Below are positions 5,301-17,843 of a stretch of DNA of 64,000 bases, piece after piece. Positions within the stretch are counted from its first letter, which is position 1; every line of letters begins with the position of its first letter. The notes beneath the pieces are model-generated. The model worked only from the letters and a program-made list of their open reading frames with translations. It made no database searches and was not told the DNA's origin. This DNA is from a virus (Duplodnaviria > Heunggongvirae > Uroviricota > Caudoviricetes), in the IMG/VR virus record IMGVR_UViG_2799113015_000003, positions 1 to 64,000 of that record, one strand, 5' to 3'. The position numbers were made by a program, and so were the translations under genes.

Positions 5301-5572
5301 GCGCGCCAGCCACTCGGGATGTGCGCTACTGGTACGAGCTTGGTAGACGCACCCTGAGTCCCGGGACAGAGGTGTCCATTAAGGGCAAGACTGGCCGGTT
5401 CCGGTTCCAGTACTGGCGGCACACCAGCTCTGGCATGGATGAACTCACGTTCGTCGGTGGGCCGCTACATGGACAGGGAGAGCGTTACGTCTCGGTCTAC
5501 CCCGAGCGTGTTACCCGGGTGCATCGAATCAACAAGACACTGACCAACATTCAGAAGGAGAAGCGCAAGTGA
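5297..5572 (+). CDS. hypothetical protein, 91 aa
   Basis: ORF with 4-nt overlap to the upstream gene. Confidence 0.4.
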   Translation: MSAPATRDVRYWYELGRRTLSPGTEVSIKGKTGRFRFQYWRHTSSGMDELTFVGGPLHGQGERYVSVYPERVTRVHRINKTLTNIQKEKRK

Positions 5573-5742
5573 GCGCCACGGTACTGGAGGCGCGGTGGCT
5601 CACGAAAGGCCACTACCTACCCGTGTATGCGGAATCGGTGGCTGAGGTGGTTCAGCTGGAGGACTTTGTCGTCGTGACGTTCGCCAGCGACCTGCCAGTG
5701 AAGGTCTTCCACGAAACCGACAAGGTCGAGGTGTGGGAATGA
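5569..5742 (+). CDS. hypothetical protein, 57 aa (GTG start)
   Basis: GTGA overlap with the upstream stop and ATGA overlap with the downstream start; not in the ORF track because it is shorter than 60 aa. Confidence 0.3.
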   Translation: MSATVLEARWLTKGHYLPVYAESVAEVVQLEDFVVVTFASDLPVKVFHETDKVEVWE

Positions 5743-5933
5743 GGTACTGCCCCACTCCCGACAAGAAGTCATATGTCAACAAAGGTGTAGCACTTCGAGC
5801 GGTTACCAGGATCCGCAAGAACAGTAGGACAAGGCACAACAAGAAGCGCTACATACCGGTGGAGCCGTACGTCTGCACATGCGGCGAATACCACCTCTGC
5901 ACTGCCGACAAAGCGAAGTTCAAACGCAAGTAG
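5739..5933 (+). CDS. small basic Cys-containing protein, 64 aa
   Basis: ATG 5739 preceded by GAGGTGTGGG; sequence MRYCPTPDKK...CTCGEYHLC; last gene before the integrase. Confidence 0.4.
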   Translation: MRYCPTPDKKSYVNKGVALRAVTRIRKNSRTRHNKKRYIPVEPYVCTCGEYHLCTADKAKFKRK

Positions 5934-5939
5934 AGAAGA

Positions 5940-5975
5940 GGGTCAGCCCACATGGGTTGGCCCTTTTCTTTTACC
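5940..5975 (+). terminator. putative intrinsic terminator
   Basis: GGGTCAGCCCACATGGGTTGGCCC stem-loop followed by TTTTCTTTT. Confidence 0.4.
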
Positions 5976-6037
5976 CAGATCGTTAGCAGACCTAACCAAA
6001 TACCCACCCAATCATTCAGTCTCCTGCGGTATCATCT

Positions 6038-7438
6038 ATGACTATGCGAGCTGCCGTCTACCTGCGCCAATCAATGGATAGAGAAGGTGACGGACTAGCC
6101 GTCGAACGTCAGCGCGAAGACTGCCTGAGGATCTGCCGTGAGCGCGGCTGGGAACCCACTCAGTACGTCGACAACGACACTAGCGCCAGCAAGGGCCGTC
6201 GACCGTCGTATGAGCGCATGCTCGCTGATATACGCAGTGGTCGCATTGATGCCGTAGTGGTGTGGGATCTTGACCGCCTACATCGTCAGCCCAAGGAGCT
6301 CGAGCAGTTCATTGAGTTGGCCGACGAGAAGCGGCTAGCGCTGGCCACTGTAGGCGGGGACGCTGATCTCTCCACCGATAACGGTCGGCTGTTCGCGCGC
6401 ATCAAAGGCGCGGTGGCCAGGGCTGAGGTGGAGCGGAAGTCAGCAAGGCAGAAGCGCGCATTTCTCCAGATGGCCCAATCTGGTAAAGGCTGGGGCCCGC
6501 GCGCATTCGGATACAACGGTGACCATGACAAGCCGAAGATCATCCTCAAGGAGGCTGAGGCCCTGAGGCGTGGCTACAAGATGCTCCTGTCGGGCGAAAC
6601 CCTCTATTCAGTTGCAAAACACTGGAATGACGCTGGCCTGAAGACCCCCCGGGGGAACCTGTTCAACGGAACCACGGTGCGCCGGATTCTTCAGAACCCG
6701 CGCTACGCAGCTGTGCGCACCTACCACGATGAAGTCGTGGGCGAGGGTAAGTGGCCTGCGATCATTGACGAGACCACCTGGCAGGCTGTGAATGCCCTCC
6801 TTAGCGACCCATCACGCCATCAGCCGCGCCAGGTTCGTAAGTACGTCCTCGGCGGCCTACTCACCTGCAGCGAGTGTGGCCACAAGATGTCTGTGGGCGT
6901 ACAGCACCGGAAAGAGGGGAATGTCCCCATCTACCGGTGCAAGCACGTCAGCTGCGGCAAGGTCACCCGACGTGTTGAGCGTATGGATGAATGGGTGAGG
7001 GAGATTGTCCTGCGCAGAATGTCGAGTCGGCATTGGGTTCCCGGCAATCAGGACAACCGGGAAAGGGCCCTCCAGCTACGGGAAGAGTTGGACACAATCA
7101 AGCAGCGAATGGACTCCCTCGCAATCGATTTCGCTGACGGAGAACTCACCGCAAGCCAGATGCGTATCGCTAATGAGCGCATGCAGGCGAAGCTGGATGA
7201 CGTTGAGGACAAGCTGCGTCGAACCAATGTGCGGCCAATCCCCGATGGGATTCTCACCGCGAAGGACCGTGGCAAGTTTTACGACGACCAGATGTCTCTG
7301 GATGCGAAACGAGCCCTCATTGAGGCCTTATGCAACTCGATTGTCGTGCATCCCCTTAACCTCAAGGGCCGCAGTGCTTCCCAGGCTCCGCTCGGGCATA
7401 ACATCGATGTCCACTGGCACAAGCCCAGTAATGGCTGA
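6038..7438 (+). CDS. int: large serine recombinase (serine integrase)
   Basis: N-terminal resolvase-type catalytic domain (AAVYLRQSMDREGDGLAVERQRE...); 466 aa with a Cys-rich zinc-ribbon and coiled-coil C-terminal region typical of phage serine integrases. Confidence 0.9.
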   Translation: MTMRAAVYLRQSMDREGDGLAVERQREDCLRICRERGWEPTQYVDNDTSASKGRRPSYERMLADIRSGRIDAVVVWDLDRLHRQPKELEQFIELADEKRLALATVGGDADLSTDNGRLFARIKGAVARAEVERKSARQKRAFLQMAQSGKGWGPRAFGYNGDHDKPKIILKEAEALRRGYKMLLSGETLYSVAKHWNDAGLKTPRGNLFNGTTVRRILQNPRYAAVRTYHDEVVGEGKWPAIIDETTWQAVNALLSDPSRHQPRQVRKYVLGGLLTCSECGHKMSVGVQHRKEGNVPIYRCKHVSCGKVTRRVERMDEWVREIVLRRMSSRHWVPGNQDNRERALQLREELDTIKQRMDSLAIDFADGELTASQMRIANERMQAKLDDVEDKLRRTNVRPIPDGILTAKDRGKFYDDQMSLDAKRALIEALCNSIVVHPLNLKGRSASQAPLGHNIDVHWHKPSNG

Positions 7439-7772: not shown

Positions 7773-8474
7773 CTAGCACTTTTGATCCTCCAGCTCCTGA
7801 ACGATCGCCACAATCTGATCGAGCGCCACGGGCCTGTAGTCCCACGCGTCGAGGCCGACGTGAATCTGATTGATACGTGCTGGTTTGTTGCGCAGCGCAG
7901 CGCCACGCCGCTTAGCCTCCCGGCCACCGATACTCAGCTTCTCCGGGCTATGCGTGTGGCCATGCAGGATGTAGTGCCCATAGTCCGGCAAACGCCACTC
8001 GGGATAGCGGTCCTCATCCGTGTGGTCGCCCGTGTACGGGAAGTGAGACAGCATCGCGGTTGTATGGCCATCTCTCAAGGGAATTCGAACTTTCGCGGCC
8101 AACTGCACACACTCGAATGGTGCAGGCCGGTCAGGTTGATCCTGGCCAAGATAGATGGGCAACCACTTATGCGAGTCGCGGTGCAAAGGATGTGTGCCAC
8201 AATGATTCCCTGGAATACCGCGCTTGCGGCCAGGGCGAGCACGTAGCCAATCTAGGGCCCTCAATTGCGCTGTCTTGGTACCGGACGAAATGTCACCCAA
8301 CACCCACACGACATCGTCAGGCGCAACCATACTGTCCCAGTTACGGGCCAGCTGCGAGTCATGAGAGTCGATCTCCGCGCCTACGTATCGTGGTAGCACC
8401 CATCCGCGAGTGCGTTCCCTGGCCACCTTCTCGTGGCCGATATGTAGGTCAGATGTGAACCACACCTTGCTCAT
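7773..8474 (-). CDS. calcineurin-like metallophosphoesterase
   Basis: Motifs DLHIGH, GDISSG, GNHC and GHTH, in the order characteristic of the metallophosphoesterase superfamily. Confidence 0.75.
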   Translation of the reverse strand: MSKVWFTSDLHIGHEKVARERTRGWVLPRYVGAEIDSHDSQLARNWDSMVAPDDVVWVLGDISSGTKTAQLRALDWLRARPGRKRGIPGNHCGTHPLHRDSHKWLPIYLGQDQPDRPAPFECVQLAAKVRIPLRDGHTTAMLSHFPYTGDHTDEDRYPEWRLPDYGHYILHGHTHSPEKLSIGGREAKRRGAALRNKPARINQIHVGLDAWDYRPVALDQIVAIVQELEDQKC

Positions 8475-9157
8475 TCGATCACCTCAGTGAATGGCCCGTC
8501 TACCCCTAGGCGGTCAACGACACGGGGTGTACGAGGCTTGGGTACGCAATTCGTACTCTCAGGAGATACGGAATGCGTAGTCGCCGGTTCCTGTTGTGGC
8601 TCCAGGTAGTCGTCCCTACGGGATACCCGCCCAGCGGCAAGGTCGTCCAGTCCACGCGCCAGAGACTTGCCCGGTTCCTGTTGCGCTTCCCCGGTCGCAT
8701 CACATGCGGCGCAATCCGTTTCCAGCCAGCCGCCTGGTACCTTCCCGTAGCCAACACCAGATCCGTTGCAGATCCGGCACGTCTCCGGTACCTGTTGTGC
8801 TGTTGGGTCAGGGTCGGGTCGTGTCACAAGCGGCTCTTCGCCAGGCGGAAACCAGTCCAACCCTGATTTGCCGGGCCACTGATCGGGGCGGATCTGCGGC
8901 CAAGAGTCGGCGTGGTCGCCGTCAGTATCGAGTCGAGGCTTTCGAACATCGAGGTAGAAGTACTCCCACCCCAGTTCATTCATGATGGCGATGTATCCAC
9001 CGTCTGGTCGTCGTGCGATGGTGCCAACAGGTGCACCCTCGGGGATGCTGTTAGCGATATCAAAGGCAATCTGCATTTCCCAGACCGCCATCCCGGCAGC
9101 TTTAGCGATTAATTCCAACTGTTCGGCAGTCGGTTCCAGCTTGCCCATCGGTTTCAC
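8471..9157 (-). CDS. hypothetical protein, 228 aa
   Basis: Long ORF with 4-nt overlaps on both sides; internal CxxC...CxxC segment. Confidence 0.5.
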   Translation of the reverse strand: MKPMGKLEPTAEQLELIAKAAGMAVWEMQIAFDIANSIPEGAPVGTIARRPDGGYIAIMNELGWEYFYLDVRKPRLDTDGDHADSWPQIRPDQWPGKSGLDWFPPGEEPLVTRPDPDPTAQQVPETCRICNGSGVGYGKVPGGWLETDCAACDATGEAQQEPGKSLARGLDDLAAGRVSRRDDYLEPQQEPATTHSVSPESTNCVPKPRTPRVVDRLGVDGPFTEVIE

Positions 9158-9339
9158 CAGCCTGCCGCCATTCCTCGTGTCATGTGTTTGTAGCCTTCGC
9201 CGTTTGGTATTCCTGACCCAGGCCGGAAGTAGCAGACCTCATTTGGCTCAGATCGACAGGTCGGGCATGCCACGTTCAAATCCGGGTCGCCCTCTGCAAT
9301 CGCTTTCCGCTGCGCTTTAGACGGATTCAACACGTTCAC
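9154..9339 (-). CDS. small zinc-finger-like protein, 61 aa
   Basis: CPTCRSEPNEVCYF motif; overlapping-stop arrangement. Confidence 0.35.
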   Translation of the reverse strand: MNVLNPSKAQRKAIAEGDPDLNVACPTCRSEPNEVCYFRPGSGIPNGEGYKHMTRGMAAGW

Positions 9340-10022
9340 CAGCCAAACTCCCTTGGTACATAGACTTGGTTCTGCGGTCGGATGAAGTCCGAATCCGCTG
9401 GCGGTTGGTCAGATTCAGTGATGCGGATTAGCAGACGCCATCCACGTTCAGTAGCCTGCGACGCCTGGTGGATATTCCACCAATCCCATGAGTGCCAAAC
9501 ATCCTCTTGCGCAGTCAGTTTCCGCAGAGTTGTGCATCCATCAATCCGGCGAGTTAATTCTGAGTAGAGCTGTTCGTCTTCGTCGTGCTCAATCGGCAGG
9601 TACAGTAATCCATCAATGAACACAGTTGGGCAGTCGTTTCCAACGTGCAGCGTGTGGTAGCGCGGGTAATAGCCCTCAAGGGAACGGTAATTCTGCAGCG
9701 GAAGGGACGGCGTGCCCCAATTCGCTGGGGTCACGGTCTCGTCTGCAGCGCTGTAGCGCGGAACCCCATCGGTATGCCACCCGGGAATCGCAGGCCACCA
9801 GCCAGGCATCAGCATAGAGACCTTAGTGTCCACGAAGATGTGCTTGTGGTCCCCAACAATTGGGGCTGACTGCAGGAGTCCGCGCAAGAGTGGACCTCCA
9901 TAGAGCACAGCATTCGACAGGCTCGCGCGGCGCAGGTTCGGTGTCCCCTCGATTAGCGCGTGGTCGGATTCCGCTCTGGGCCCGATCACCACAGGGTTGC
10001 GGTTAAACCAGTAGGCGGTCAC
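9336..10022 (-). CDS. hypothetical protein, 228 aa (possible 2OG-Fe(II) oxygenase-like HxD...H)
   Basis: WHTDG followed ~45 aa later by HTLHVG resembles the HxD...H iron-binding facial triad; assignment tentative. Confidence 0.45.
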   Translation of the reverse strand: MTAYWFNRNPVVIGPRAESDHALIEGTPNLRRASLSNAVLYGGPLLRGLLQSAPIVGDHKHIFVDTKVSMLMPGWWPAIPGWHTDGVPRYSAADETVTPANWGTPSLPLQNYRSLEGYYPRYHTLHVGNDCPTVFIDGLLYLPIEHDEDEQLYSELTRRIDGCTTLRKLTAQEDVWHSWDWWNIHQASQATERGWRLLIRITESDQPPADSDFIRPQNQVYVPREFGW

Positions 10023-10333
10023 ACCAACCCCAATGCCTTCATCTCGGCGTGCGCCTCTACCACCTCACGGTCGAACCGGTCGCGGGTGTACTCGCCGCCA
10101 AGGTGGGCGATGGTGTCCTCGACCATCCGAATCCACCATTCGGCCACGCCATCAAGGCCACCCATCGTGGCGGTTTCGCCCACAAGGATGAACCACGGGT
10201 GCGCGTTGGCTTCCAGGCACTCATCGCCATACGCCATAGAGATAGGTACACCAGGCACCGAACACACTCCGAGTGCGGGCTCCTTCCCGCAGACATCACA
10301 AATCAGTTCTGGCAGTGCAGGCTTCTCACTCAT
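10019..10333 (-). CDS. hypothetical Cys-containing protein, ~104 aa
   Basis: Start set at an internal ATG giving an ATGA overlap with the stop of the Pth2 gene. Confidence 0.4.
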   Translation of the reverse strand: MSEKPALPELICDVCGKEPALGVCSVPGVPISMAYGDECLEANAHPWFILVGETATMGGLDGVAEWWIRMVEDTIAHLGGEYTRDRFDREVVEAHAEMKALGLV

Positions 10334-10683
10334 AGCAGTTTCAGCTCCCCTGTAATCGGCGCGAGTTCGTCGGCGGTCGCTGGACCAATGGCACAACAGG
10401 TAGTTGTGAGCACGCCGTGGAACTCAGTCAATCCGTTGTCAGTAATCAATGAATTCGGGATTCCGGCCTTAATTGCCTTATCCCACAGCTCAATCAGCGC
10501 ATCCTCACTCTCGACACGCACACATACCTTGGTGAAACTCCCCTGCAGCCACTCTTCAACGCGCGGATCCGAGAGGTATTCGAGCGTCGCAGCCAGCGAT
10601 GCATGCGCGCCCTGTGCGACCATCTTGCCTGCACGCATACCAAGGTCTTTACGCATGACGATCATTTGCTTCAGCTCACTCAT
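10330..10683 (-). CDS. pth2: peptidyl-tRNA hydrolase, PTH2 family
   Basis: IVMRKDLGMRAGKMVAQGAHASLAA matches the conserved PTH2 core (e.g. human PTRH2 [21 protein letters not shown]). Confidence 0.7.
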   Translation of the reverse strand: MSELKQMIVMRKDLGMRAGKMVAQGAHASLAATLEYLSDPRVEEWLQGSFTKVCVRVESEDALIELWDKAIKAGIPNSLITDNGLTEFHGVLTTTCCAIGPATADELAPITGELKLL

Positions 10684-10756
10684 CGCCGTTCACCTCCCCC
10701 ATGATCTGAGCGCCGTCGTACACGGTCACCGGGTCGTAGTCGCATGCCGAATCGCG

Positions 10757-10767
10757 GTATCCCTTCC
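10757..10767 (-). promoter_or_regulatory. start-associated motif core on the minus strand (GGAAGGGATAC) upstream of the Pth2 gene
   Basis: Reverse complement GTATCCCTTCC on the top strand; followed on the minus strand by a 21-codon mini-ORF that ends at the Pth2 ATG. Confidence 0.35.
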
Positions 10768-10812
10768 CTGGGATTACCGGGTACTTCTCGAACCAGAACC
10801 CCTCACCGGGCA

Positions 10813-12051
10813 CTAGGTTCCCTTCACATTCAGCACCTGGCGAAGCTCCGTGACAACCTCAACCAGAGGGGCGGCGTCACTCATCACGACGTCGATTGGC
10901 TTGTAGCAGGAAGGGATCTCGTCAATCCATTCCTCGCCGTGGCGGTACTCGATGCCTTGCATCTGGTCGGCCAGGTCTTCAAGGGTGAAGAGTTCCTTCG
11001 CCTTGGTGCGAGAGAATCGCCTCCCGGCACCGTGCGGTGCAGAGAACAGGCCATCCTTGTTGCCCCGACCCCGGACCACATAGGAGCGTGTCCCCATCGA
11101 GCCGGGGATAAGTCCCAGCTTCCCCTCTGACGCATCGATAGCGCCCTTCCGGGTCAGCCATACCTTCCGCCCATCGATCTCAGTCTCAACCGTGTAGTTG
11201 TGGTGACAGTTCACGCGGTCGATCTCGACGCGCTGCGCCTGCACTCCAAGCCAATTCGCGAACACCTGGACGTAGCGGTCCATCATCTCGGCACGGTTCT
11301 CGTAGGCGAACTTTTGTGCCCACTGCAGATCCTTGATGTAGCGATCGAACTCAGCGGTCCCCTCAGTGAGGTAAGCAAGATCCCGATTCGGCAAACGAAA
11401 TTGAGGAGCGGCCTCGCCTGAGCACTTCTGTAGGTACTCATAGCGCGCAACGGCTACCTTAATGTGGCGCTGAGCGATCTTGTTGCCCACGCCCCTACTT
11501 CCCGAGTGCAGGAACAGCCACACAGTGTCTTCCAGGTCGACACACAGCTCGATGAAATGGTTACCGCCACCAAGTGAGCCCAACTGCTCCATCCACTTCG
11601 GGGAGTGAGACAGGTCTACATCCAGCTCGTTCTGAAGCCGGATCAGGCCCTCAATCCGATTACGTGTGAACGGGAACCGCTTAATGTCCGAGTTATAGTT
11701 GCCTGGCGACAACGGGATTGCACCCTCGATGGCCACGCGCAAATCGGGCAGGCGGGGCATATCAGCCAACAGGGCGTCATCCATGATGTTGGCCCACTCG
11801 TAGCGGGTCTTCACCGCGATCATGCCGCAGCCGATGTCCACGCCAACAGCCGCAGGAATCACAGCCCCCACGGTGGGGATGACCGTTCCAACAGCTGAAC
11901 CCTTGCCACTGTGCGCATCAGGCATCAGCGCCATGTGCGGGTAGATGAACGGCAGCGAGGCCGTCTCCTTAGCCTGATCGATCGTCGTGTAGTCGATCTC
12001 TGAGGCGAACGAGATGATGTTGTCACCAATGCGCTGGCTCAATTCCTTCAT
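10813..12051 (-). CDS. rtcB: RtcB-family RNA ligase (3'-phosphate/5'-hydroxyl RNA ligase)
   Basis: MPDAHSGKGSAVGTV, GVDIGCGM, GGGNHFIEL and SAPHGAGR are hallmark RtcB active-site motifs. Confidence 0.9.
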   Translation of the reverse strand: MKELSQRIGDNIISFASEIDYTTIDQAKETASLPFIYPHMALMPDAHSGKGSAVGTVIPTVGAVIPAAVGVDIGCGMIAVKTRYEWANIMDDALLADMPRLPDLRVAIEGAIPLSPGNYNSDIKRFPFTRNRIEGLIRLQNELDVDLSHSPKWMEQLGSLGGGNHFIELCVDLEDTVWLFLHSGSRGVGNKIAQRHIKVAVARYEYLQKCSGEAAPQFRLPNRDLAYLTEGTAEFDRYIKDLQWAQKFAYENRAEMMDRYVQVFANWLGVQAQRVEIDRVNCHHNYTVETEIDGRKVWLTRKGAIDASEGKLGLIPGSMGTRSYVVRGRGNKDGLFSAPHGAGRRFSRTKAKELFTLEDLADQMQGIEYRHGEEWIDEIPSCYKPIDVVMSDAAPLVEVVTELRQVLNVKGT

Positions 12052-12127
12052 ATACCAATGCTATTGAGCGATTACGGGTTCATGTGGGTACGAAAAAGCC
12101 CCCAGCTTTCGCTGAGGGCTCTTCGAG

Positions 12128-12198
12128 TAGTCCATGCGGGAATCAAACCCGCACCAACACCTTGAGAGGGTGGTGTGCTCTCACTACACCAATGGACC
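12128..12198 (-). tRNA. tRNA-Glu (anticodon CTC)
   Basis: T-arm GCGGG/AATCAAA/CCCGC (reverse complement); 7-bp acceptor with G1-U72; anticodon loop CTCTCAA. Confidence 0.7.
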
Positions 12199-12204
12199 TT
12201 AGGG

Positions 12205-12543
12205 CTATTGCTCAACCCACTTGCCGGATTCACGAACCTCTGTCTTGAGGTTAACCGGCCACATATCACGCTCCACTTGGGCACGTTGTAGGTCTTCGCG
12301 GCCCACCTGACGTTTCACCCATAGCTGGAACTTTGGTGAGCTCGCCATGCGCCTGAACGCGGCCTGCTTGTTCTGCAGCTGGCTACGCTCCTCGCGCGAC
12401 TCACCCACCGCGCCAGAAGGCTCATGCGTAATCCGCACGCCCGTCTCGCGCTTGTTCTGGTTTTGACCGCCTTTGCCCCCAGATCGGAATGTGTCCACAC
12501 GACAATCCGAGAGGGTGACAGACAGTACCCGTTCTCTACTCAC
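12205..12543 (-). CDS. ArfB-like peptidyl-tRNA hydrolase (class I release-factor GGQ domain protein)
   Basis: FRSGGKGGQNQNKRETGVRITHEPSG matches the RF-1/ArfB GGQ catalytic loop (E. coli ArfB [22 protein letters not shown]); ~110 aa with a basic C-terminal tail, as in ArfB. Confidence 0.65.
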   Translation of the reverse strand: MSRERVLSVTLSDCRVDTFRSGGKGGQNQNKRETGVRITHEPSGAVGESREERSQLQNKQAAFRRMASSPKFQLWVKRQVGREDLQRAQVERDMWPVNLKTEVRESGKWVEQ

Positions 12544-12544
12544 G

Positions 12545-12618
12545 TCAAGTCGACCGGATTTGAACCGGCGTCCCCCGCCGTGACAGGGCGGTGCTTTAGA
12601 CCTCTAAGCTACGACTCG
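12545..12618 (-). tRNA. tRNA-Asp (anticodon GTC)
   Basis: Acceptor pairs 12546-52 with 12612-18; anticodon arm CCGCC/GTGACAG/GGCGG. Confidence 0.7.
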
Positions 12619-12675
12619 AAAGAACGTTTGCCCCCAGTGGTTTTCGAGGCCACCGGGGCAGGTACGAACAACCTG

Positions 12676-12750
12676 AGCCAACTTTCTGGGAATCAAACCC
12701 TGGAGCTGCTTGGCCAAAACTCCCGTGGAGACGGTGCGAATTGAACGCGA
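12676..12750 (-). tRNA. tRNA-like sequence, isotype undetermined
   Basis: T-arm-like CTGGG/AATCAAA/CCCTG at 12686-12702, but acceptor and anticodon stems could not be paired by hand. Confidence 0.3.
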
Positions 12751-12800
12751 CCACACCAATCTTGCAAGGATCGGTCGCCACCTTGGAACATGCGCCCCCA
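12726..12800 (-). tRNA. possible tRNA-Ala (anticodon TGC), poorly folding
   Basis: Anticodon arm CAATC/TTGCAAG/GATCG gives loop CTTGCAA; T-arm GTGCG/AATTGAA/CGCGA is imperfect and the acceptor was not resolved. Confidence 0.3.
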
Positions 12801-12869
12801 AGGCCCCCGTTTTGACAAGACTGGGTCTGAACTTGGACGGTTACCTCAACGGAGCCGACAACCCTGTAG

Positions 12870-12943
12870 GGCCTCATCGAGGTCTCGAACCCCGCGCCTC
12901 TTCGTTACTAAGGAAGTGCTCTAGCCGGATGAGCTAATGAGGC
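12870..12943 (-). tRNA. tRNA with anticodon AGT (Thr?)
   Basis: Perfect 7-bp acceptor 12871-77/12937-43, D-stem GCTC/GAGC and a good T-arm; anticodon loop TTAGTAA gives the unusual A34 anticodon AGU. Confidence 0.55.
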
Positions 12944-12992
12944 CTGTTGCATAGGCGTTTTGAACAGGTGCCCTTGCAAGTGGCCTGTGGCG

Positions 12993-13065
12993 TACCCAGT
13001 CGAGGAATCGAACCCCGCTTGGCTGGATGTAAGCCAGCTTTCGTCCCAGACTAACCAGGCATGAG
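12993..13065 (-). tRNA. possible tRNA-Val (anticodon TAC)
   Basis: T-arm CGAGG/AATCGAA/CCCCG and a perfect anticodon arm GCTGG/ATGTAAG/CCAGC; acceptor pairing not confirmed. Confidence 0.45.
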
Positions 13066-13140
13066 AACGAGTGACCAGATTCGAACTGGCACGACCTGTT
13101 TGGAAGACAGGGATGCTAAACCGTTAAACATCACACTCGC
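13066..13140 (-). tRNA. tRNA-Gly (anticodon TCC)
   Basis: Acceptor 13067-73/13134-40; anticodon arm CCTGT/TTGGAAG/ACAGG. Confidence 0.7.
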
Positions 13141-13144
13141 ATGG

Positions 13145-13212
13145 AGCGGCAGAGGTGACTCGAACACCCTTGCAGCGGCTTAGGAGGCCACGCACTTTCC
13201 GGAACTACCGCT
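13145..13212 (-). tRNA. possible tRNA-Arg (anticodon CCT), short or atypical D region
   Basis: T-arm AGGTG/ACTCGAA/CACCC; anticodon arm GCGGC/TTAGGAG/GCCAC; only ~68 nt between the acceptor halves. Confidence 0.4.
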
Positions 13213-13215
13213 TGG

Positions 13216-13287
13216 TAGGTTCGCACAGAATTGAACTGCGATTGCCGACGTATCAGGTCGGTGTCCTTACCATTGGACGACGAACCA
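13216..13287 (-). tRNA. tRNA-Ile (anticodon GAT)
   Basis: Acceptor 13217-23/13281-87 (6 of 7 pairs); anticodon arm CCGAC/GTATCAG/GTCGG. Confidence 0.65.
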
Positions 13288-13288
13288 G

Positions 13289-13360
13289 TGGGAGCACCAG
13301 GGGTCGAACCTGGGATTCATGGGTAAGAGCCAAGAGTTATAACCGCTTAACTATACTCCC
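13289..13360 (-). tRNA. tRNA-Lys (anticodon CTT)
   Basis: Perfect T-stem CCAGG/CCTGG; acceptor 13290-96/13354-60; anticodon loop CTCTTAC. Confidence 0.6.
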
Positions 13361-13361
13361 C

Positions 13362-13433
13362 TAGGGCGCAAGGGATTTGAACCCTCAACTCGTAGATTAA
13401 AAGTCTAGGGTGATGCCGTTTCACCAACGCCCA
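13362..13433 (-). tRNA. tRNA-Lys (anticodon TTT)
   Basis: T-arm AAGGG/ATTTGAA/CCCTC; anticodon loop CTTTTAA. Confidence 0.6.
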
Positions 13434-13434
13434 G

Positions 13435-13509
13435 TAGTCGGCGCGAGGATCGAACTCGCACACACCGAGGTTTGAGCTCGGCGGCTTTGCCAGGTTTGCC
13501 TAGCCGACC
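13435..13509 (-). tRNA. tRNA with anticodon CAA (Leu codon UUG) but class-I length
   Basis: Perfect T-stem GCGAG/CTCGC, acceptor 13436-42/13503-09, perfect anticodon stem CCGAG/CTCGG with loop CTCAAAC; only a 5-nt variable region (75 nt total). Confidence 0.55.
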
Positions 13510-13567
13510 ATGCTCAGCATTTAACCGACCCAAGGCGGTTGGCACCCGTGAGGGCTGTTTGAACCGG

Positions 13568-13641
13568 TACTCCAAGAGGGATTCGAACCCACAACCTCCA
13601 GGGTCTAAGCCTGTCGCCTCTGCCAGTTGGGCTATTGGAGC
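13568..13641 (-). tRNA. tRNA with anticodon TAG (Leu codon CUA) but class-I length
   Basis: Acceptor 13569-75/13635-41; anticodon loop CTTAGAC; 74 nt with a short variable region. Confidence 0.5.
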
Positions 13642-13698
13642 TTGGTGCCGATATTGCCGCGTCGGCTTTACGGTGACTCCTACTCACCGCGCGCGTCG

Positions 13699-13770
13699 AG
13701 ACGAAGGCCGGGATCGAACCGGCGTGGGTCAGGGTTGCAGCCTGCCAGCTAGCCACTCACTCACTTCGCC
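13699..13770 (-). tRNA. tRNA-Cys (anticodon GCA)
   Basis: Perfect T-stem GCCGG/CCGGC; acceptor 13700-06/13764-70; anticodon loop CTGCAAC. Confidence 0.65.
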
Positions 13771-13778
13771 TTAAGCCG

Positions 13779-13943
13779 CTATTCTGCGGCGGGTGCTGCC
13801 TTCTTCGCGGGTGCCTTCTTGGCTACCGGCTTCTCTTCCACTGCGTAGTGGAAGTCCTCAAGGGCATCCATACGATCAATCAGGTCGTTTACCGCCTTGA
13901 CGATGTCGATATGGGCGATGCCCGTGCGCAGCTTGTCAGTCAT
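13779..13943 (-). CDS. small lysine/alanine-rich protein, 54 aa
   Basis: ORF MTDKLRTGIAHIDIVKAVNDL...KKAPAKKAAPAAE directly downstream of the HNH gene (ATGACTGA junction); below the ORF-track size cutoff. Confidence 0.25.
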   Translation of the reverse strand: MTDKLRTGIAHIDIVKAVNDLIDRMDALEDFHYAVEEKPVAKKAPAKKAAPAAE

Positions 13944-14337
13944 TGGTCGCCTCTGCTAGTCGTTTTCTGTAGTCGCGCTTACGATTTCTTGCTGCTAACC
14001 GACAGAGGCCGCAGCGGCACCCCCATCGGTCATACATTGTGCTTGTCCCATGGCGGGTTGGCCGCGTGCCATGCGTGAGCGGCATTTGGGCTGTGGTCTT
14101 GTCGCGATGACACCTCTTACAGAGGGGTTGACACTTCCTCAGCTCTGCCTGGAGTCGCGGCTCGGCCCAACTCCATATTCGGTGAGATGATTTCTCCATC
14201 GGATCGATGTGGTCGATCTCGAGTTGCTCAGTCGCACCGCAACTCACACACTTTCTGCCCTCAAAGTACCTAGCACGCCTTGCGGCCTGCCGTAGTCGTT
14301 CGTATTCTCGTCGGCGGACAGGATCTTTGATTGGCAT
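13936..14337 (-). CDS. HNH endonuclease (paralog 1) embedded in the tRNA array
   Basis: CVSCGATEQLEIDHIDP...CKRCH...GCRCGLCR HNH/zinc-finger motifs; start set at internal ATG 14337 (AGGGG RBS) because the longer ORF would overlap tRNA-Arg. Confidence 0.7.
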   Translation of the reverse strand: MPIKDPVRRREYERLRQAARRARYFEGRKCVSCGATEQLEIDHIDPMEKSSHRIWSWAEPRLQAELRKCQPLCKRCHRDKTTAQMPLTHGTRPTRHGTSTMYDRWGCRCGLCRLAARNRKRDYRKRLAEATND

Positions 14338-14432
14338 GTAACCCCTGTTTATATTGGGGTGACCGGACGGTACTGACCCGTCATCCTCGCGGTCACATCG
14401 CGAGATTCTCAACCTTTGAACTACGGTCACAG

Positions 14433-14507
14433 ACCCGTTGGCAGGATTCGAACCTGCATGCGTTGCGCCTTCGTAGGGCGGTGGGCGCTCCATTGCCCAA
14501 CAACGAG
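14433..14507 (-). tRNA. tRNA-Arg (anticodon ACG)
   Basis: Perfect T-stem GCAGG/CCTGC; acceptor 14434-40/14501-07; anticodon loop CTACGAA with A34, as expected for bacterial Arg-ACG. Confidence 0.7.
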
Positions 14508-14517
14508 AGCAGGCGGT

Positions 14518-14536
14518 TTAACGTGGAGTGCCCAGC
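14518..14536. repeat. 19-nt repeat TTAACGTGGAGTGCCCAGC (copy 1)
   Basis: Identical apart from one base to 14788-14806; lies 11 nt beyond the 5' end of tRNA-Arg on the tRNA strand. Confidence 0.5.
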
Positions 14537-14645
14537 ACGGAGCAGTTTTTCGTGATGTCTCAACACGGATGGTTCTTCCAGTTGTGAACCAACAACATTC
14601 ATGAGCCAGTTTCTACCCCAGCCGTGTACTGGCAACCCTCGTCCG

Positions 14646-14720
14646 TGGCGGGTACCGGATTTGAACCGGTGGTCTCAAGGTTATGAGCCTTGCGAGATGG
14701 CCGAGCTTCTCTAACCCGCT
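14646..14720 (-). tRNA. tRNA-Met (anticodon CAT)
   Basis: Perfect T-stem ACCGG/CCGGT and anticodon stem CAAGG/CCTTG with loop CTCATAA; 1-72 position is an A-C mismatch. Confidence 0.65.
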
Positions 14721-14787
14721 AAGTATGAGTGACTCATTCCGGCAGGACAGTTCGTCGCCTGCCGTATCCGCGCGAGTCAACGCGGCC

Positions 14788-14806
14788 TTTTACGTGGAGT
14801 GCCCAG
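14788..14806. repeat. 19-nt repeat TTTACGTGGAGTGCCCAGC (copy 2)
   Basis: Second copy, 68 nt beyond the 5' end of tRNA-Met. Confidence 0.5.
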
Positions 14807-14846
14807 CTTTTCACCAGTAGCTGTGGAACCTGGTTTCCCTTACACG

Positions 14847-14920
14847 CCGACTCTCCCCGAATCGAACGGGGGCGCACCGGGCTTCAACCGGTCGCTCTTA
14901 CCTAACTGAGCTAAGAGTCG
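14847..14920 (-). tRNA. tRNA-Phe (anticodon GAA)
   Basis: Perfect T-stem CCCCG/CGGGG, perfect acceptor 14848-54/14914-20 and anticodon stem ACCGG/CCGGT with loop TTGAAGC. Confidence 0.7.
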
Positions 14921-15214
14921 ATTGTTAGAGGCTGAGAGTACACCCGCTATCGAGAACCTTTCGCAGCATTATGGATTCGCTGCTTCTCCAGGCCATCCCT
15001 GACCTAGTTCTCACGCCTGGTCCGTTACCGTGAACCACTCGTTATGCCGAAAGCTACTCTGCGGCTTTCCCTTCGCGATGAGATGGCCGTCTCACTGCTG
15101 CAGTACTTGCCTACAAACCGCACTCACCTTGCGGGACTATTGTGCGGCCCAGATTCCCGAGGGTCTGGGATTAAGGCGCTTTTGCTCCTCGGCAGGGGAA
15201 GGACTTTTGCTTTT

Positions 15215-15290
15215 TATTGACGACGGGACTTGAACCCGCACATCCAGTTTCCAATAACTGGTGACCTACCGTTGGTCTACGCCATTCTCG
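15215..15290 (-). other. degenerate tRNA-like element
   Basis: Good T-arm ACGGG/ACTTGAA/CCCGC and an anticodon-like hairpin CCAGT/TTCCAATA/ACTGG with an 8-nt loop; no matching acceptor stem found. Confidence 0.25.
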
Positions 15291-15740
15291 CAGCGGAGAA
15301 TGATTTGACTAGAGACGTGCTTCCCCATGAAGTTCCGCACCCTTTTGGGGCACAGAATGCTTCACGCCTCTCGTGCTTTCGCCTGGCGGGGCTAATTACA
15401 CTCTCTCTCAACCGCATTGCGAGCCGTCGCCCGACGCGAGATCGATCATGGAACACGCCCTTGCTTGCGAGGCTCGGACTCAGTTCCTTCCGTTCCACAG
15501 GGCGCTTGTTCGATAGCCTTTTCACACGCACGTACGTGATGGTGTCCTCAGCACTTTGCCGTTGGACGGGGCGTAACTCGCAACCTGGCAGCCATCACTG
15601 ACTGCTCAAGGATTGGATTGCATGGATTGCCCTTGCGGGTGGTGGGTTGTCACCCCACCTTTCACCACCTTGCGGTGGCTTATGGGCCATGCCCCGAATG
15701 TCTTAACTATATCTCCCACAACAGAGTTCGTGTGGGTGAG

Positions 15741-15822
15741 CGGAGAGGCAGGTATTCGAAACCTACTGCGAACAGCGCTCCGGTTAGCAACCGGGCCTAG
15801 TCACCTAACTAGTTGCGCTCTC
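15741..15822 (-). tRNA. tRNA-Ser (anticodon GCT), class II
   Basis: T-arm CAGGT/ATTCGAA/ACCTA; anticodon loop TTGCTAA; ~13-nt variable arm; 82 nt. Confidence 0.55.
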
Positions 15823-15903
15823 CAAAATCCACCCCTTCGGCGTCGACACTGGACTCGACGCACCTGTATTCACTCTTAGCCATGGCCAGGCGGGTGGAGA
15901 ACG

Positions 15904-15988
15904 AGGAAGGTAGAGGAATCGAACCCCCGAGTTTTCAGGCTCGCCCCGGTATTCGACGCCGGTTGCCGACCATTCAGCGGTGCCTTCC
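15904..15988 (-). tRNA. tRNA-Ser (anticodon CGA), class II
   Basis: T-arm AGAGG/AATCGAA/CCCCC with G-U pairs; long variable arm; anticodon loop GTCGAAT; 85 nt. Confidence 0.5.
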
Positions 15989-16068
15989 ATATGCCCCATT
16001 TTGATAACGCAACTGGAGCGGCTGCGGGCAGTCAACTCATGGCAGGTACCTACCGGTTGACTCAAAAG

Positions 16069-16140
16069 CTGAAGACCCTGGATTCGAACCAAGAACTGCG
16101 ACGTTCAGAGCGTCGTGTGTTGCCGTTACACCAATCTTCA
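16069..16140 (-). tRNA. tRNA-Gln (anticodon CTG)
   Basis: Acceptor 16070-76/16134-40; anticodon arm CGACG/TTCAGAG/CGTCG. Confidence 0.7.
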
Positions 16141-16217
16141 AGGGCGATTTGACCGTATGCATCCGATCGGGAGCCGCAACCCAGCAGATCATTTGCCCCG
16201 GCCTGCCAGCGGAGTCG

Positions 16218-16299
16218 TACGGACTGATGGATTCGAACCACCACACTCGAAAGCTCTGATTTACAGTCAGAGATCCCTCGCCAATAGGAGAGAGTCCGC
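16218..16299 (-). tRNA. tRNA-Tyr (anticodon GTA), class II
   Basis: Acceptor 16219-25/16293-99; anticodon arm TCTGA/TTTACAG/TCAGA; 11-nt variable arm; 82 nt. Confidence 0.7.
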
Positions 16300-16302
16300 A
16301 TT

Positions 16303-16680
16303 TCACGATGCACGTTGTCGGCGCTTCGCGTTTCGGGCCCACAGGCGACACAGCCCGCATCGGCAGCCGTGTCGTTGGTACATTCTGCACGTGCCATGTC
16401 GGTAGGACTTGAAACCGATGGTGATCTCGGTTTGCGCGATAGTCTTCGCCTTGTGGCAGGCACGACACAGGGCTTGACACTTATCCAATTCTGCAATGCG
16501 TCTGCCTGCCGACCAGGACCAAATCGCGTTCGTAACCTTCACTGTTGGATCAATGTGATCCAGTTCAAGGTCACCCCCTGAACCGCAAGAGGCACATACC
16601 CTTCCGGCGAACCACTCGTCACGTCGACCTGCTCGCCACTCTCGTTGGTACCGGCGCTTCACTTCACCTGTAAGTGTCAT
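16303..16680 (-). CDS. HNH endonuclease (paralog 2) embedded in the tRNA array
   Basis: CASCGSGGDLELDHIDP...CRACH...YRHGTCRMYQRHGCRCGLCR aligns with the 13936..14337 product; the ORF is flanked tightly by tRNA-Tyr and tRNA-Asn. Confidence 0.75.
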   Translation of the reverse strand: MTLTGEVKRRYQREWRAGRRDEWFAGRVCASCGSGGDLELDHIDPTVKVTNAIWSWSAGRRIAELDKCQALCRACHKAKTIAQTEITIGFKSYRHGTCRMYQRHGCRCGLCRLWARNAKRRQRAS

Positions 16681-16684
16681 AACG

Positions 16685-16758
16685 CTGGCTTGGCAGGATT
16701 CGAACCTACACCTCGCGAGTTAACAGCTCGCTGCTCTACCAATTGAGCTACAGGCCAA
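16685..16758 (-). tRNA. tRNA-Asn (anticodon GTT)
   Basis: T-arm GCAGG/ATTCGAA/CCTAC; anticodon arm GCGAG/TTAACAG/CTCGC. Confidence 0.65.
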
Positions 16759-16876
16759 GAGCGAGGGTGGCCAGTGTCAGCGCGCTTTCTGACCTGTGCG
16801 ACCCTCTTGCCCGTCCTGCTTAGAGATGAGACGGAGCCGAAAACACCCGTACGGTCATCATACGTGATGACCAACG

Positions 16877-16951
16877 TCTGCCAGGCGCGATTTGAACACG
16901 CGATCTCCTGGACCCAAACCAGGCGGGATGGCCAAACTTCCCTACAAGCAG
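16877..16951 (-). tRNA. tRNA-Pro (anticodon TGG)
   Basis: T-arm GCGCG/ATTTGAA/CACGC; perfect anticodon stem CCTGG/CCAGG with loop TTTGGGT (G37); perfect D-stem GGGA/TCCC. Confidence 0.6.
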
Positions 16952-17194
16952 ATGATGGACGACACGGCCCAGGTACGGCACCTCAGGTCAGATCCTTTTT
17001 ATCGGAACCTACTGCGGGATTACCCTGCCATCCATATGGCCACCGGCATCCCGATGGCCGCGCGGAGATGTCTCTCCACATTCCCCGTACGACCGACGCT
17101 TTCCTGGAGCTACCTGTACTTGCGCATGTGGTCTGACAGCCGGGGCCACACTGACTAACGAGGATGTTCTCCCTTTGCACTACCGGCAGCCTAC

Positions 17195-17260
17195 GCCGCC
17201 AGTCGGGGCTCGAACCCGAATCTTCCTCTCGTGGAGCTGCCCGGAATTGAACCGGGATGT
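17195..17260 (-). other. two adjacent perfect T-arm-like hairpins (tRNA-like fragment or structured ncRNA)
   Basis: TCGGG/GCTCGAA/CCCGA at 17203-19 and CCCGG/AATTGAA/CCGGG at 17240-56, with no resolvable acceptor or anticodon arms. Confidence 0.2.
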
Positions 17261-17642
17261 TACGTGACTTGTCACAGTCTTCTACGTGCGTAGTCCACCG
17301 ATTGGGTCGGTTGGGGTGGACGCCTGTCCGAATCGAGACCTCAGACTCTCGACCGATCTTCCAGCACAGTTTGTCGCCTGAGAGCTGGTCATTGCGAGTT
17401 CCCCGTATTCGCGACGGTGAATTGGTACACGGAACGGGTAAACCGTTGTACCCCACCGGACTACGCAGCTAGGGCGTAGTCGGACTGAGCAGAAGCTGCA
17501 GTTATTGTGGTTGCACTGTTACGGGCGTTGCGGACCCGGCACGCTTCTCAGTAAGTTGACACGCAATCGAATACCTGTCAGCCCCATTGAAGTATCTATA
17601 TCTCTATGGAGTTTTCAAATGTCATGCCACACAGAGGCATTG

Positions 17643-17713
17643 CACGGGCGGAGAGAATCGAACTCCCACTAACGGGTTTGGAATCCGTTGTCCTGCCTTT
17701 GGACCACGCCCAT
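17643..17713 (-). tRNA. tRNA-Trp (anticodon CCA)
   Basis: T-arm GAGAG/AATCGAA/CTCCC; acceptor 17644-50/17707-13; anticodon loop TTCCAAA. Confidence 0.65.
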
Positions 17714-17843
17714 ATCACCGGAATTTCCGGCTCCGGTAACCGGTGTGAACTAAGTCTACGACCCACCCACATGAACCTCTAGCGAATAAAAACGGGCCCC
17801 GATCCACTGAGGAACCGGGGCCCAACGCCGAGAAAGCCTGCGC

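Follow-up and report, generated by a model that had tools for sequence, protein, structure and literature searches.

The region between positions 7,773 and 17,713 of the first 64,000 nucleotides of the viral record IMGVR_UViG_2799113015_000003 (IMG/VR; Caudoviricetes) carries a dense array of tRNA genes together with genes for an RtcB RNA ligase, a Pth2-type peptidyl-tRNA hydrolase, a small protein with the GGQ motif of release factors and a metallophosphoesterase. This raises the question of whether these genes form a so far undescribed module directed against host defences that target translation, as proposed in the initial annotation of this DNA. Here the whole 64-kb stretch (the window) was examined, with a region of 10.5 kb used for DNA comparison. 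The genes are real, their arrangement has already been described and annotated, and they do not constitute a new system. We judge it somewhat more probable than not that the region is where the leftward lytic operon of a Mycobacterium abscessus prophage (cluster MabI) ends in genes that support translation, a judgement that takes in the two-part layout and the mechanism set out below.

The closest known systems are the cluster MabI prophages prophiT49-2 (OQ417962), prophi86-1 (MW584160) and prophiGD54-2 (MW584202). The Mycobacterium phage prophiT49-2 shares 95.6% DNA identity over 82% of the 10.5 kb; prophi86-1 and prophiGD54-2 share 92.7% and 87.9% identity with the region, and cluster M mycobacteriophages about 75-77%, over parts of the region only. 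The exact Pth2 protein of the window is found on a 410-kb contig of the NCBI assembly GCA_900141225.1 with identical neighbours in identical order, and near protein relatives carry source names of Mycobacteroides abscessus. Because of the DNA identity, the match in this assembly and the source names of the relatives, the window most likely represents a prophage of the M. abscessus complex that belongs to cluster MabI, which is related to cluster M. A serine integrase gene (6038-7438, plus strand) is divergent from, and located just past the end of, the leftward operon, a position common to all cluster M/MabI relatives. Compared with how the 80-kb record of prophiT49-2 is laid out, the whole window seems to fall within the prophage.

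Eight genomes were compared: the window, prophiT49-2, prophi86-1, prophiGD54-2 and the phages Rey, MrMagoo, Nanosmite and PegLeg. All eight share a core consisting of the integrase, the phosphoesterase, a protein with the fold of 2-oxoglutarate (2OG)-dependent oxygenases, RtcB, and the tRNA run from tRNA-Glu to tRNA-Trp with GOLLD RNA and transfer-messenger RNA (tmRNA); Pth2 and the GGQ gene are variable accessories outside this core. The GenBank records of prophiT49-2 and prophi86-1 list, in order, a serine integrase, a phosphoesterase, a protein of 228 amino acids (aa), Pth, an RtcB-like ligase, tRNA-Glu, RF-1, the array, tmRNA and tRNA-Trp, and the tmRNA tag of both is the same as in the window. 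The initial annotation had regarded the set as not being a described module, and had itself named an identical gene order in annotated phages as the finding that would speak against this; that order is present in these two records. The comparison of gene order with actinophages, which it had also suggested, recovers the backbone of RtcB, array and tmRNA in every cluster M/MabI genome compared (8/8).

Relative to the window, prophiT49-2 has an extra tRNA-Glu(ttc), prophi86-1 is without tRNA-Tyr, both carry HNH genes at other positions, and prophiGD54-2 is without Pth2 and has a DprA-like gene beside RtcB. The cluster M phages Bongo, PegLeg, Rey, MrMagoo and Nanosmite show the same backbone, the same Glu-to-Trp order of tRNAs, RtcB next to tRNA-Glu, tmRNA, GOLLD and HNH genes, but differ from the window in that none of them carries Pth2 and that a GGQ gene is found in Nanosmite only, near the integrase. 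Cluster M was reportedly described by Pope et al. in 2014 as having RtcB, a tmRNA and 21-24 tRNAs, with a proposed use in late lytic growth. The organization of prophiGD54-2 was likened to that of cluster M by Dedrick et al. in 2021 (PMC8092301), and Morgado and Vicente defined in 2018 this array as type G1, shared by the M. abscessus complex and cluster M phages, listed an RF-1-domain coding sequence as the core coding sequence of G1 arrays in mycobacterial genomes, and flagged RF-1, Pth and tmRNA as ribosome-rescue genes associated with arrays (PMC5966550). Published readings of the array, tmRNA, release factor, Pth and GOLLD already invoke ribosome rescue or translational reprogramming (PMC8092301, PMC5966550, PMC6582537, PMC12286853).

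ARAGORN, in agreement with Rfam, detected a tmRNA, 20 canonical tRNAs and a further, odd tRNA, which all fall within 12127-17713 on the minus strand; it found no tRNA elsewhere in the 64-kb window. The first gene of the array is tRNA-Trp(cca) (17642-17713; Rfam 54.6 bits), followed by a phage tmRNA (17231-17585; RF00023, 80.5 bits versus a gathering score of 47) with the tag peptide AASAQSDYALAA, whose reading frame in the ARAGORN call is AASAQSDYALAA followed by a stop. The further tRNAs are, in order, tRNA-Pro(tgg) (16876-16951), tRNA-Asn(gtt) (16684-16757), tRNA-Tyr(gta) (16217-16299), tRNA-Gln(ctg) (16068-16140), tRNA-Phe(gaa) (14846-14920), tRNA-Met(cat) (14645-14720), tRNA-Arg(acg) (14432-14507), tRNA-His(gtg) (14355-14430), tRNA-Cys(gca) (13698-13770), tRNA-Leu(tag) (13566-13641), tRNA-Leu(caa) (13434-13509), tRNA-Lys(ttt) (13362-13433), tRNA-Lys(ctt) (13288-13360), tRNA-Ile(gat) (13213-13287), tRNA-Gly(tcc) (13065-13140), tRNA-Val(tac) (12992-13060), tRNA-Thr(agt) (12869-12943), tRNA-Asp(gtc) (12544-12618) and, as the last gene of the array, tRNA-Glu(ctc) (12127-12198); the individual entries for tRNA-Tyr and tRNA-Val come from ARAGORN, all others from ARAGORN and Rfam. 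Rfam also detects tmRNA genes that are unannotated in GenBank in MrMagoo (13549-13892, 101.5 bits) and Nanosmite (12837-13189, 111.5 bits).

Under relaxed settings ARAGORN delivered five further weak candidates on the minus strand in gaps of the array, three of which match annotated tRNA slots of relatives. These three are tRNA-Ala(tgc) (12725-12799), whose homologous sequence is annotated as tRNA-Ala(tgc) in prophiT49-2 and prophiGD54-2 and which has an annotated counterpart at the same slot in MrMagoo; tRNA-Arg(cct) (13143-13213), which corresponds in its slot between Gly and Ile to an annotated tRNA-Arg(cct) of Nanosmite; and the unconfirmed tRNA-Ser(gct) (15740-15823), annotated as such in the PegLeg array. 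A long-arm tRNA-Ser(cga) (15903-15988) gave a sub-threshold 25.3 bits with the Rfam tRNA-Sec model and is likewise unconfirmed. The relaxed search also yields false positives, antisense to real tRNAs and inside the RF-1 open reading frame (ORF), and the cloverleaves of the five gap candidates are ambiguous, so that they are reported as weak only. The figure of about 25 tRNA genes given in the initial annotation is thus an upper estimate: 20 of them are solid, the other five weak.

The confident tRNAs serve 18 amino acids, with U34 or A34 anticodons in several four-codon boxes, and the array provides a near-complete set with about one tRNA for each codon box. For the codons of crudely called ORFs in the window, these 20 tRNAs decode about 62% if wobble is strict and 78% if U34 pairs with any of the four bases; when the five candidates are added, these values rise to 72% and 95%, respectively.

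The array also contains a GOLLD RNA on the minus strand. Its conserved 3' part (14929-15372) matches the Rfam model RF02032 over its full length (1-416 of 416) with 198.7 bits versus a gathering score of 150. Because conservation and structure continue for about 330 nt upstream of the Rfam match, where 27 of 87 predicted pairs show compensatory changes among five phages, the RNA is taken to span approximately 14929-15700 (about 790 nt), including a variable 5' domain that reaches to about 15700. The linker holds a tRNA-like element with an abnormal anticodon loop (15215-15286, minus strand), which is the odd tRNA of the ARAGORN output ('tRNA-??? (tg)'; Rfam tRNA 49.5 bits); it is near-identical across MabI prophages, with one substitution, and is labelled there as tRNA-OTHER or Gln(ttg). 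The full-length match, the location in a phage tRNA island and the tRNA within the linker are all shared with the GOLLD family, from which nothing notable differs, the lineage-specific 5' domain being as expected of the family. GOLLD is present in 8/8 of the cluster M/MabI genomes and is unannotated in the related GenBank records examined. GOLLD with an internal pseudo-tRNA has already been reported from Mycobacterium tRNA arrays (PMC6582537), and mycobacterial GOLLD was also reported by Morgado et al. in 2020, as cited in PMC12286853.

Terminator-like hairpins bracket the array. The upstream one (17793-17824, minus strand) lies just upstream of tRNA-Trp and has a 13-bp stem and a U-run, with a free energy of -25 kcal/mol (z -3.2). 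The downstream one (12091-12125, minus strand), also followed by a U-run, lies between tRNA-Glu and RtcB and has a free energy of -24.5 kcal/mol (z -5.3), with no shuffled sequence equally stable; owing to a bulge it was overlooked by the terminator scan, and was seen by reading of the sequence and confirmed by folding. Hairpins after tRNA-Glu are conserved in position but different in sequence in prophiGD54-2, Rey and PegLeg, and an upstream hairpin is found in PegLeg too, in the corresponding place (11878-11923). Because these hairpins bracket it, the array with the GGQ ORF in it appears to be transcribed as a separate unit, and RtcB and Pth2 appear to belong to the one that follows. As far as could be checked, this transcription layout is new, if minor. 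A scan for sigma-70 promoters delivered sites no more numerous than in shuffled sequence, and no promoter is claimed. On visual inspection, a hexamer of the form TANNNT (TAGCAT) is seen to end 6 nt ahead of the RtcB ATG (12052-12075, minus strand), where no Shine-Dalgarno sequence is visible; this visual lead may represent the promoter of a leaderless RtcB transcript.

For the metallophosphoesterase, PTH2, RtcB and RF-1 genes, the positions, the common strand (minus) and the four Pfam assignments of the initial annotation were confirmed. RtcB (10813-12051) matches PF01139 over the entire profile (1-426 of 426; E 5e-107, 359.2 bits versus a cut-off of 27). In an alignment to Pyrococcus horikoshii RtcB (4dwr/1uc2) the motifs MPDAH, DIGCG, GNHF, HSGSRG, HHN and HGAGR are kept, which we take to hold the metal-binding and guanylylated residues. 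The protein falls below the NCBIfam equivalog cut-offs, with 166.9 versus 407 bits and, for the PrfH-linked RtcB model TIGR03073, 141.6 versus 271.8 bits, and is thus placed in the family but in none of its subfamilies. RtcB enzymes use GTP and Mn to join 3'-phosphate or 2',3'-cyclic phosphate ends to 5'-OH ends without any need for end healing. The family is represented in 629 phage records.

Pth2 (10330-10683, minus strand) matches Pfam PTH2 (PF01981) over its full length with E 8e-32 and 110.3 bits versus a cut-off of 23; it exceeds the cut-off of TIGR00283 (97.4 versus 82 bits) and misses that of NF003314 (109.5 versus 126 bits). It aligns end to end with the archaeal Pth2 structures 2zv3 and 1wn2, with the GK..AQ..HA and D.G.T motifs kept, and both RtcB and Pth2 look catalytically intact, judged by their motifs. 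Further phage homologues of Pth2 occur in Myrna, Phabba, Baka, Pound, Sandalphon and WXIN, and in the jumbo phages Atu_ph07, phiM12, XacN1 and RsoM2USA at 40-55% identity; the six former presumably include cluster C2 and cluster J mycobacteriophages, Myrna and Phabba being taken as C2-type phages. A cysteine phosphatase of PTPc type is located directly beside RtcB in Rey (5487-5993), and in MrMagoo (6238-6744) one small ORF away from it. The slot adjoining RtcB thus seems to exchange accessory genes, with the PTPc phosphatase on one side of the comparison and Pth2 or the DprA-like gene of MabI prophages on the other.

The small release-factor-domain protein of 112 aa (12205-12543, minus strand) is encoded between tRNA-Asp and tRNA-Glu and matches Pfam RF-1 with E 7.8e-19 and 68.2 bits; its motif stands in the context GGKGGQNQNK. 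It belongs to PHROG 3122 (E 1.7e-60), and its family comprises over 1600 proteins, each about 112 aa long and mostly from actinophages and metagenomes, with end-to-end conservation that includes the C-terminal part. In an AlphaFold2 (AF2) model with a predicted local distance difference test (pLDDT) score of 86, the GGQ beta-sheet is followed by a long helix and a beta-hairpin at the end, the latter two formed by the family-conserved C-terminal 55 residues. The last 41 residues contain 8 K/R and 7 D/E and hence no basic tail of ArfB type.

In PDB sequence searches the best match is to domain 3 of RF1/RF2 (54 bits), followed by PrfH (36.6 bits) and C12orf65 (20 bits), and in Foldseek RF2 and RF1 come out on top, with PrfH 34th and mtRF-R 43rd; no ArfB/ICT1 chain is among the 45 PDB sequence matches or the top 50 Foldseek matches. 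Only residues 8-70 match RF1/RF2, at release-factor positions of approximately 210-290, and domains 1, 2 and 4 of these class I release factors were not found within the 112 aa. A scan with curated models gave RF2 and RF1 as best partial matches, with every cut-off missed widely. An ArfB-like protein, as named in the initial annotation, was rejected on the score with NF006718 (25 bits versus a cut-off of 100), the missing basic tail and the missing ArfB/ICT1 matches, and a PrfH-like protein on the score with TIGR03072 (54.6 versus 166.65), which concerns the GGQ part only, and on length (112 versus about 200 aa). ArfB/ICT1 and PrfH have the GGQ catalytic domain in common with the protein of the window, which differs from them in being without the basic C-terminal tail with which the former probe the empty mRNA channel and the domains by which the latter recognises damaged ribosomes. 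The protein is a stand-alone RF1/RF2 domain 3 and not ArfB-like.

The GGQ ORF starts with GTG 1 nt past the tRNA-Asp gene (12541-12545) and stops 6 nt before tRNA-Glu (12198-12207). Because there is no space for a ribosome-binding site between the ORF and tRNA-Asp, tRNA processing would free a near-leaderless mRNA, from which the protein may be expressed in MabI prophages, where the gene occupies the slot between tRNA-Glu and tRNA-Asp. The family could tentatively be regarded as an uncharacterised class of ribosome-rescue or peptidyl-tRNA-release factors, a suggestion to which we attach rather low confidence; such a class would need a new route to the ribosome, because the protein carries neither codon-recognition domains nor an ArfB-type tail. 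Possible routes are the C-terminal helix with its beta-hairpin or a partner such as the phage tmRNA; alternatively, by analogy to mtRF-R, the protein might act on split 50S-peptidyl-tRNA complexes.

Among the neighbouring genes, the calcineurin-type metallophosphoesterase (7773-8474, minus strand; Pfam Metallophos E 1.5e-9, PHROG 547) belongs to a family of more than 1200 members, including L5/SWU1 gp66 and members from VC3, Kumao and Hilltopfarm, none of which is among the phages found here to have arrays or RtcB. The gene is labelled as MRE11-like in the MabI GenBank records; a 25-member profile compared with the PDB (E <= 0.1) matched only the uncharacterised Aquifex protein aq_1665 (1xm7) and no Mre11, and a PDB search with the single sequence gave a chance match only. 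Because the family is also found in phages outside those detected with arrays or RtcB, no link of the phosphoesterase to translation could be demonstrated, and its inclusion by the initial annotation among the translation components is unsupported. A role as healer of RNA ends was considered and rejected, as RtcB needs no healing and the family is common outside the array and RtcB phages found.

The 228-aa protein (9336-10022, minus strand) lacks a Pfam domain; its fold is that of a 2OG/Fe(II) oxygenase, and the pattern HxD...H...R is invariant. Between phosphoesterase and RtcB, the cluster M/MabI genomes checked have either a homologue of full length or a size-matched gene. Substrates of 2OG oxygenases are known to include several translation factors. 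Membership of this protein and of the phosphoesterase in a translation module found no supporting evidence here. Beside them, a protein of about 225 aa (8471-9157, minus strand) has CxxCxGxG and CxxC motifs like the DnaJ zinc finger (Pfam E 0.0097, below the cut-off), and the adjoining 59-aa ORF (9154-9333) matches a phage zinc-binding domain.

Two HNH endonuclease ORFs lie on the minus strand within the array, one of homing type at 16303-16680 (Pfam HNH E 6.2e-5) and one at 13936-14337 (E 1.7e-5). For the latter, the internal ATG at 14337 is the likely start, as a start further upstream would make it run into tRNA-His and tRNA-Arg. The positions of the HNH genes in the array differ between the window and prophiT49-2, prophi86-1 and PegLeg, and the slot between Glu and Asp, where MabI prophages carry the GGQ gene, is occupied by an HNH gene in PegLeg; this pattern fits a shuffling of the array driven by endonucleases. 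The two HNH ORFs, the 2OG-oxygenase-fold gene, the tmRNA and GOLLD were absent from the initial annotation.

From the domain identities, it is reasonable to suggest that the region serves to keep translation going or to counter attack on tRNAs or ribosomes. The reading that we favour, with a confidence slightly on the positive side, is that a tRNA pool of its own combined with repair and rescue functions would make phage translation robust during lytic growth. It builds on the observed identity, order, strand and conservation of the parts, and supposes the timing of their expression, their substrates and their coordination. The first part would be the RNA-gene array of about 5.7 kb between the terminator-like hairpins, comprising the tRNAs, the tmRNA, GOLLD with its tRNA-like insert, the HNH genes and the GGQ gene, and the second part the downstream protein operon, with RtcB and Pth2 as its first genes. 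With its own tRNAs, the phage would not have to rely in lytic growth on those of the host, which may have been depleted or cleaved or may be poorly matched; RtcB would reseal RNAs whose cleavage left 2',3'-cyclic phosphate and 5'-OH ends; ribosomes stalled on broken or stop-less complexes would be freed by tmRNA and the GGQ protein; and Pth2 would recycle dropped-off peptidyl-tRNA. The selective pressure behind such a set, be it host defence nucleases, phage-induced decay of host tRNAs or codon supply, is not separable from sequence alone.

Several observations weigh against this reading and against the tight linkage of the four enzymes described in the initial annotation. Pth2 is found in only 3/8 of the related genomes (window, prophiT49-2 and prophi86-1). 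Rey, MrMagoo and PegLeg have no GGQ gene; that of Nanosmite is close to the integrase, about 5 kb away from RtcB, and about 200 cluster C1 phages carry the gene (73% identity) between DNA polymerase and UvsX and not by the tRNAs. The hairpin between tRNA-Glu and RtcB speaks against a single co-transcribed unit. Because of the patchy Pth2, the GGQ gene placed elsewhere in Nanosmite and cluster C1, and this hairpin between array and RtcB, the four enzymes are not one conserved tight unit. Sampled mycobacteriophage matches of the RtcB family come mostly from genomes of 50-62 kb outside cluster M. The phage may still need host tRNAs, because those for Ala and Ser are represented by weak candidates only, and the modelled GGQ protein displays no known ribosome-targeting element.

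The same genes could alternatively make up a dedicated counter-defence module, in which the parts were co-selected against host anticodon nucleases and translation-disabling abortive-infection systems: the phage tRNAs would escape cleavage, RtcB would reseal cut tRNAs, and the GGQ protein, tmRNA and Pth2 would clear ribosomes jammed by them. We regard this as possible though rather unlikely, and it overlaps with robust lytic translation to the extent that sequence cannot tell the two apart. The original cluster M paper is said to have favoured support of late-gene translation, which counts against a dedicated defence role, as do the independent variation of the components among close relatives, the location of RtcB outside the apparent transcription unit of the array, and the lack of any defence system or cleavage event linked to these phages. 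In its favour, the chemistry of RtcB is established to suit the ends left by metal-independent RNases (summarised in PMC7824862), and Iyer et al. published in 2021 the same counter-defence logic for jumbo phages, combining tRNAs, RtcB/Rnl ligases and archaeal-type PTH2, the latter proposed to recycle peptidyl-tRNA from jammed ribosomes (PMC7824862). The components and the proposed logic of these jumbo-phage sets are the same as in the window, but their genes are scattered over genomes of about 190-600 kb of unrelated virulent phages, whereas the set of the window is compact, lies near one end of an 80-kb temperate siphovirus, and adds the stand-alone GGQ protein and tmRNA. Furthermore, tRNAs of cluster C1 mycobacteriophages were reported to evade host tRNases (PMC10264068), and the PrfH-RtcB pair is a precedent for a release factor coupled to RtcB repair (PMC6514570). 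Both maintenance and counter-defence thus match proposals already in print (PMC8092301, PMC5966550, PMC7824862).

That precedent could be taken further, with the window encoding a phage version of the PrfH-RtcB2 ribosome-repair pair, whose GGQ protein releases the peptide at toxin-cut rRNA before RtcB religates it. The distance of 150 nt between the RF-domain gene and the RtcB gene, and the presence of PrfH among the sequence and fold matches, agree with this idea, which we nevertheless consider very improbable: the GGQ protein is without the PrfH recognition domains and RtcB is far below the PrfH-linked model, and here a tRNA gene and a terminator-like hairpin intervene between the two genes, which are about 5 kb apart in Nanosmite. 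Across phages the GGQ and RtcB families rarely co-occur, judged from evenly sampled RtcB matches; most of the GGQ family is found in cluster C1, and no 150-kb mycobacteriophage is among those RtcB matches. An improbable, if less remote, explanation is mosaic accretion without functional coordination, in which insertion hot spots served by HNH endonucleases at the end of the early operon and in the array would have made the adjacency of the genes a matter of history. The genome-specific HNH positions including the Glu-Asp slot of PegLeg, the alternation of Pth2, DprA-like gene and PTPc phosphatase beside RtcB, the spread of the phosphoesterase family in phages not found here with arrays or RtcB, and the cluster C1 GGQ gene unlinked to tRNAs would all be accommodated. 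Against it, the adjacency of RtcB and array was kept together with tmRNA and GOLLD in 8/8 genomes despite a DNA identity of about 75%, and in the phage collection most carriers of the GGQ family and of Pth2 are large phages or phages rich in tRNAs (cluster C1, Myrna, Phabba and jumbo phages), the cluster C1 genomes carrying many tRNAs (PMC5966550).

With the gene order in GenBank and the concept in the literature, the region does not add a new system. The corrections made here sharpen the experiments that can be done on it: the GGQ protein is not ArfB-like, the phosphoesterase is not tied to translation, the array is apparently a unit of its own, and GOLLD and tmRNA belong to the core. The residual value is practical, as M. 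abscessus prophages of the MabI type are relevant to phage therapy.

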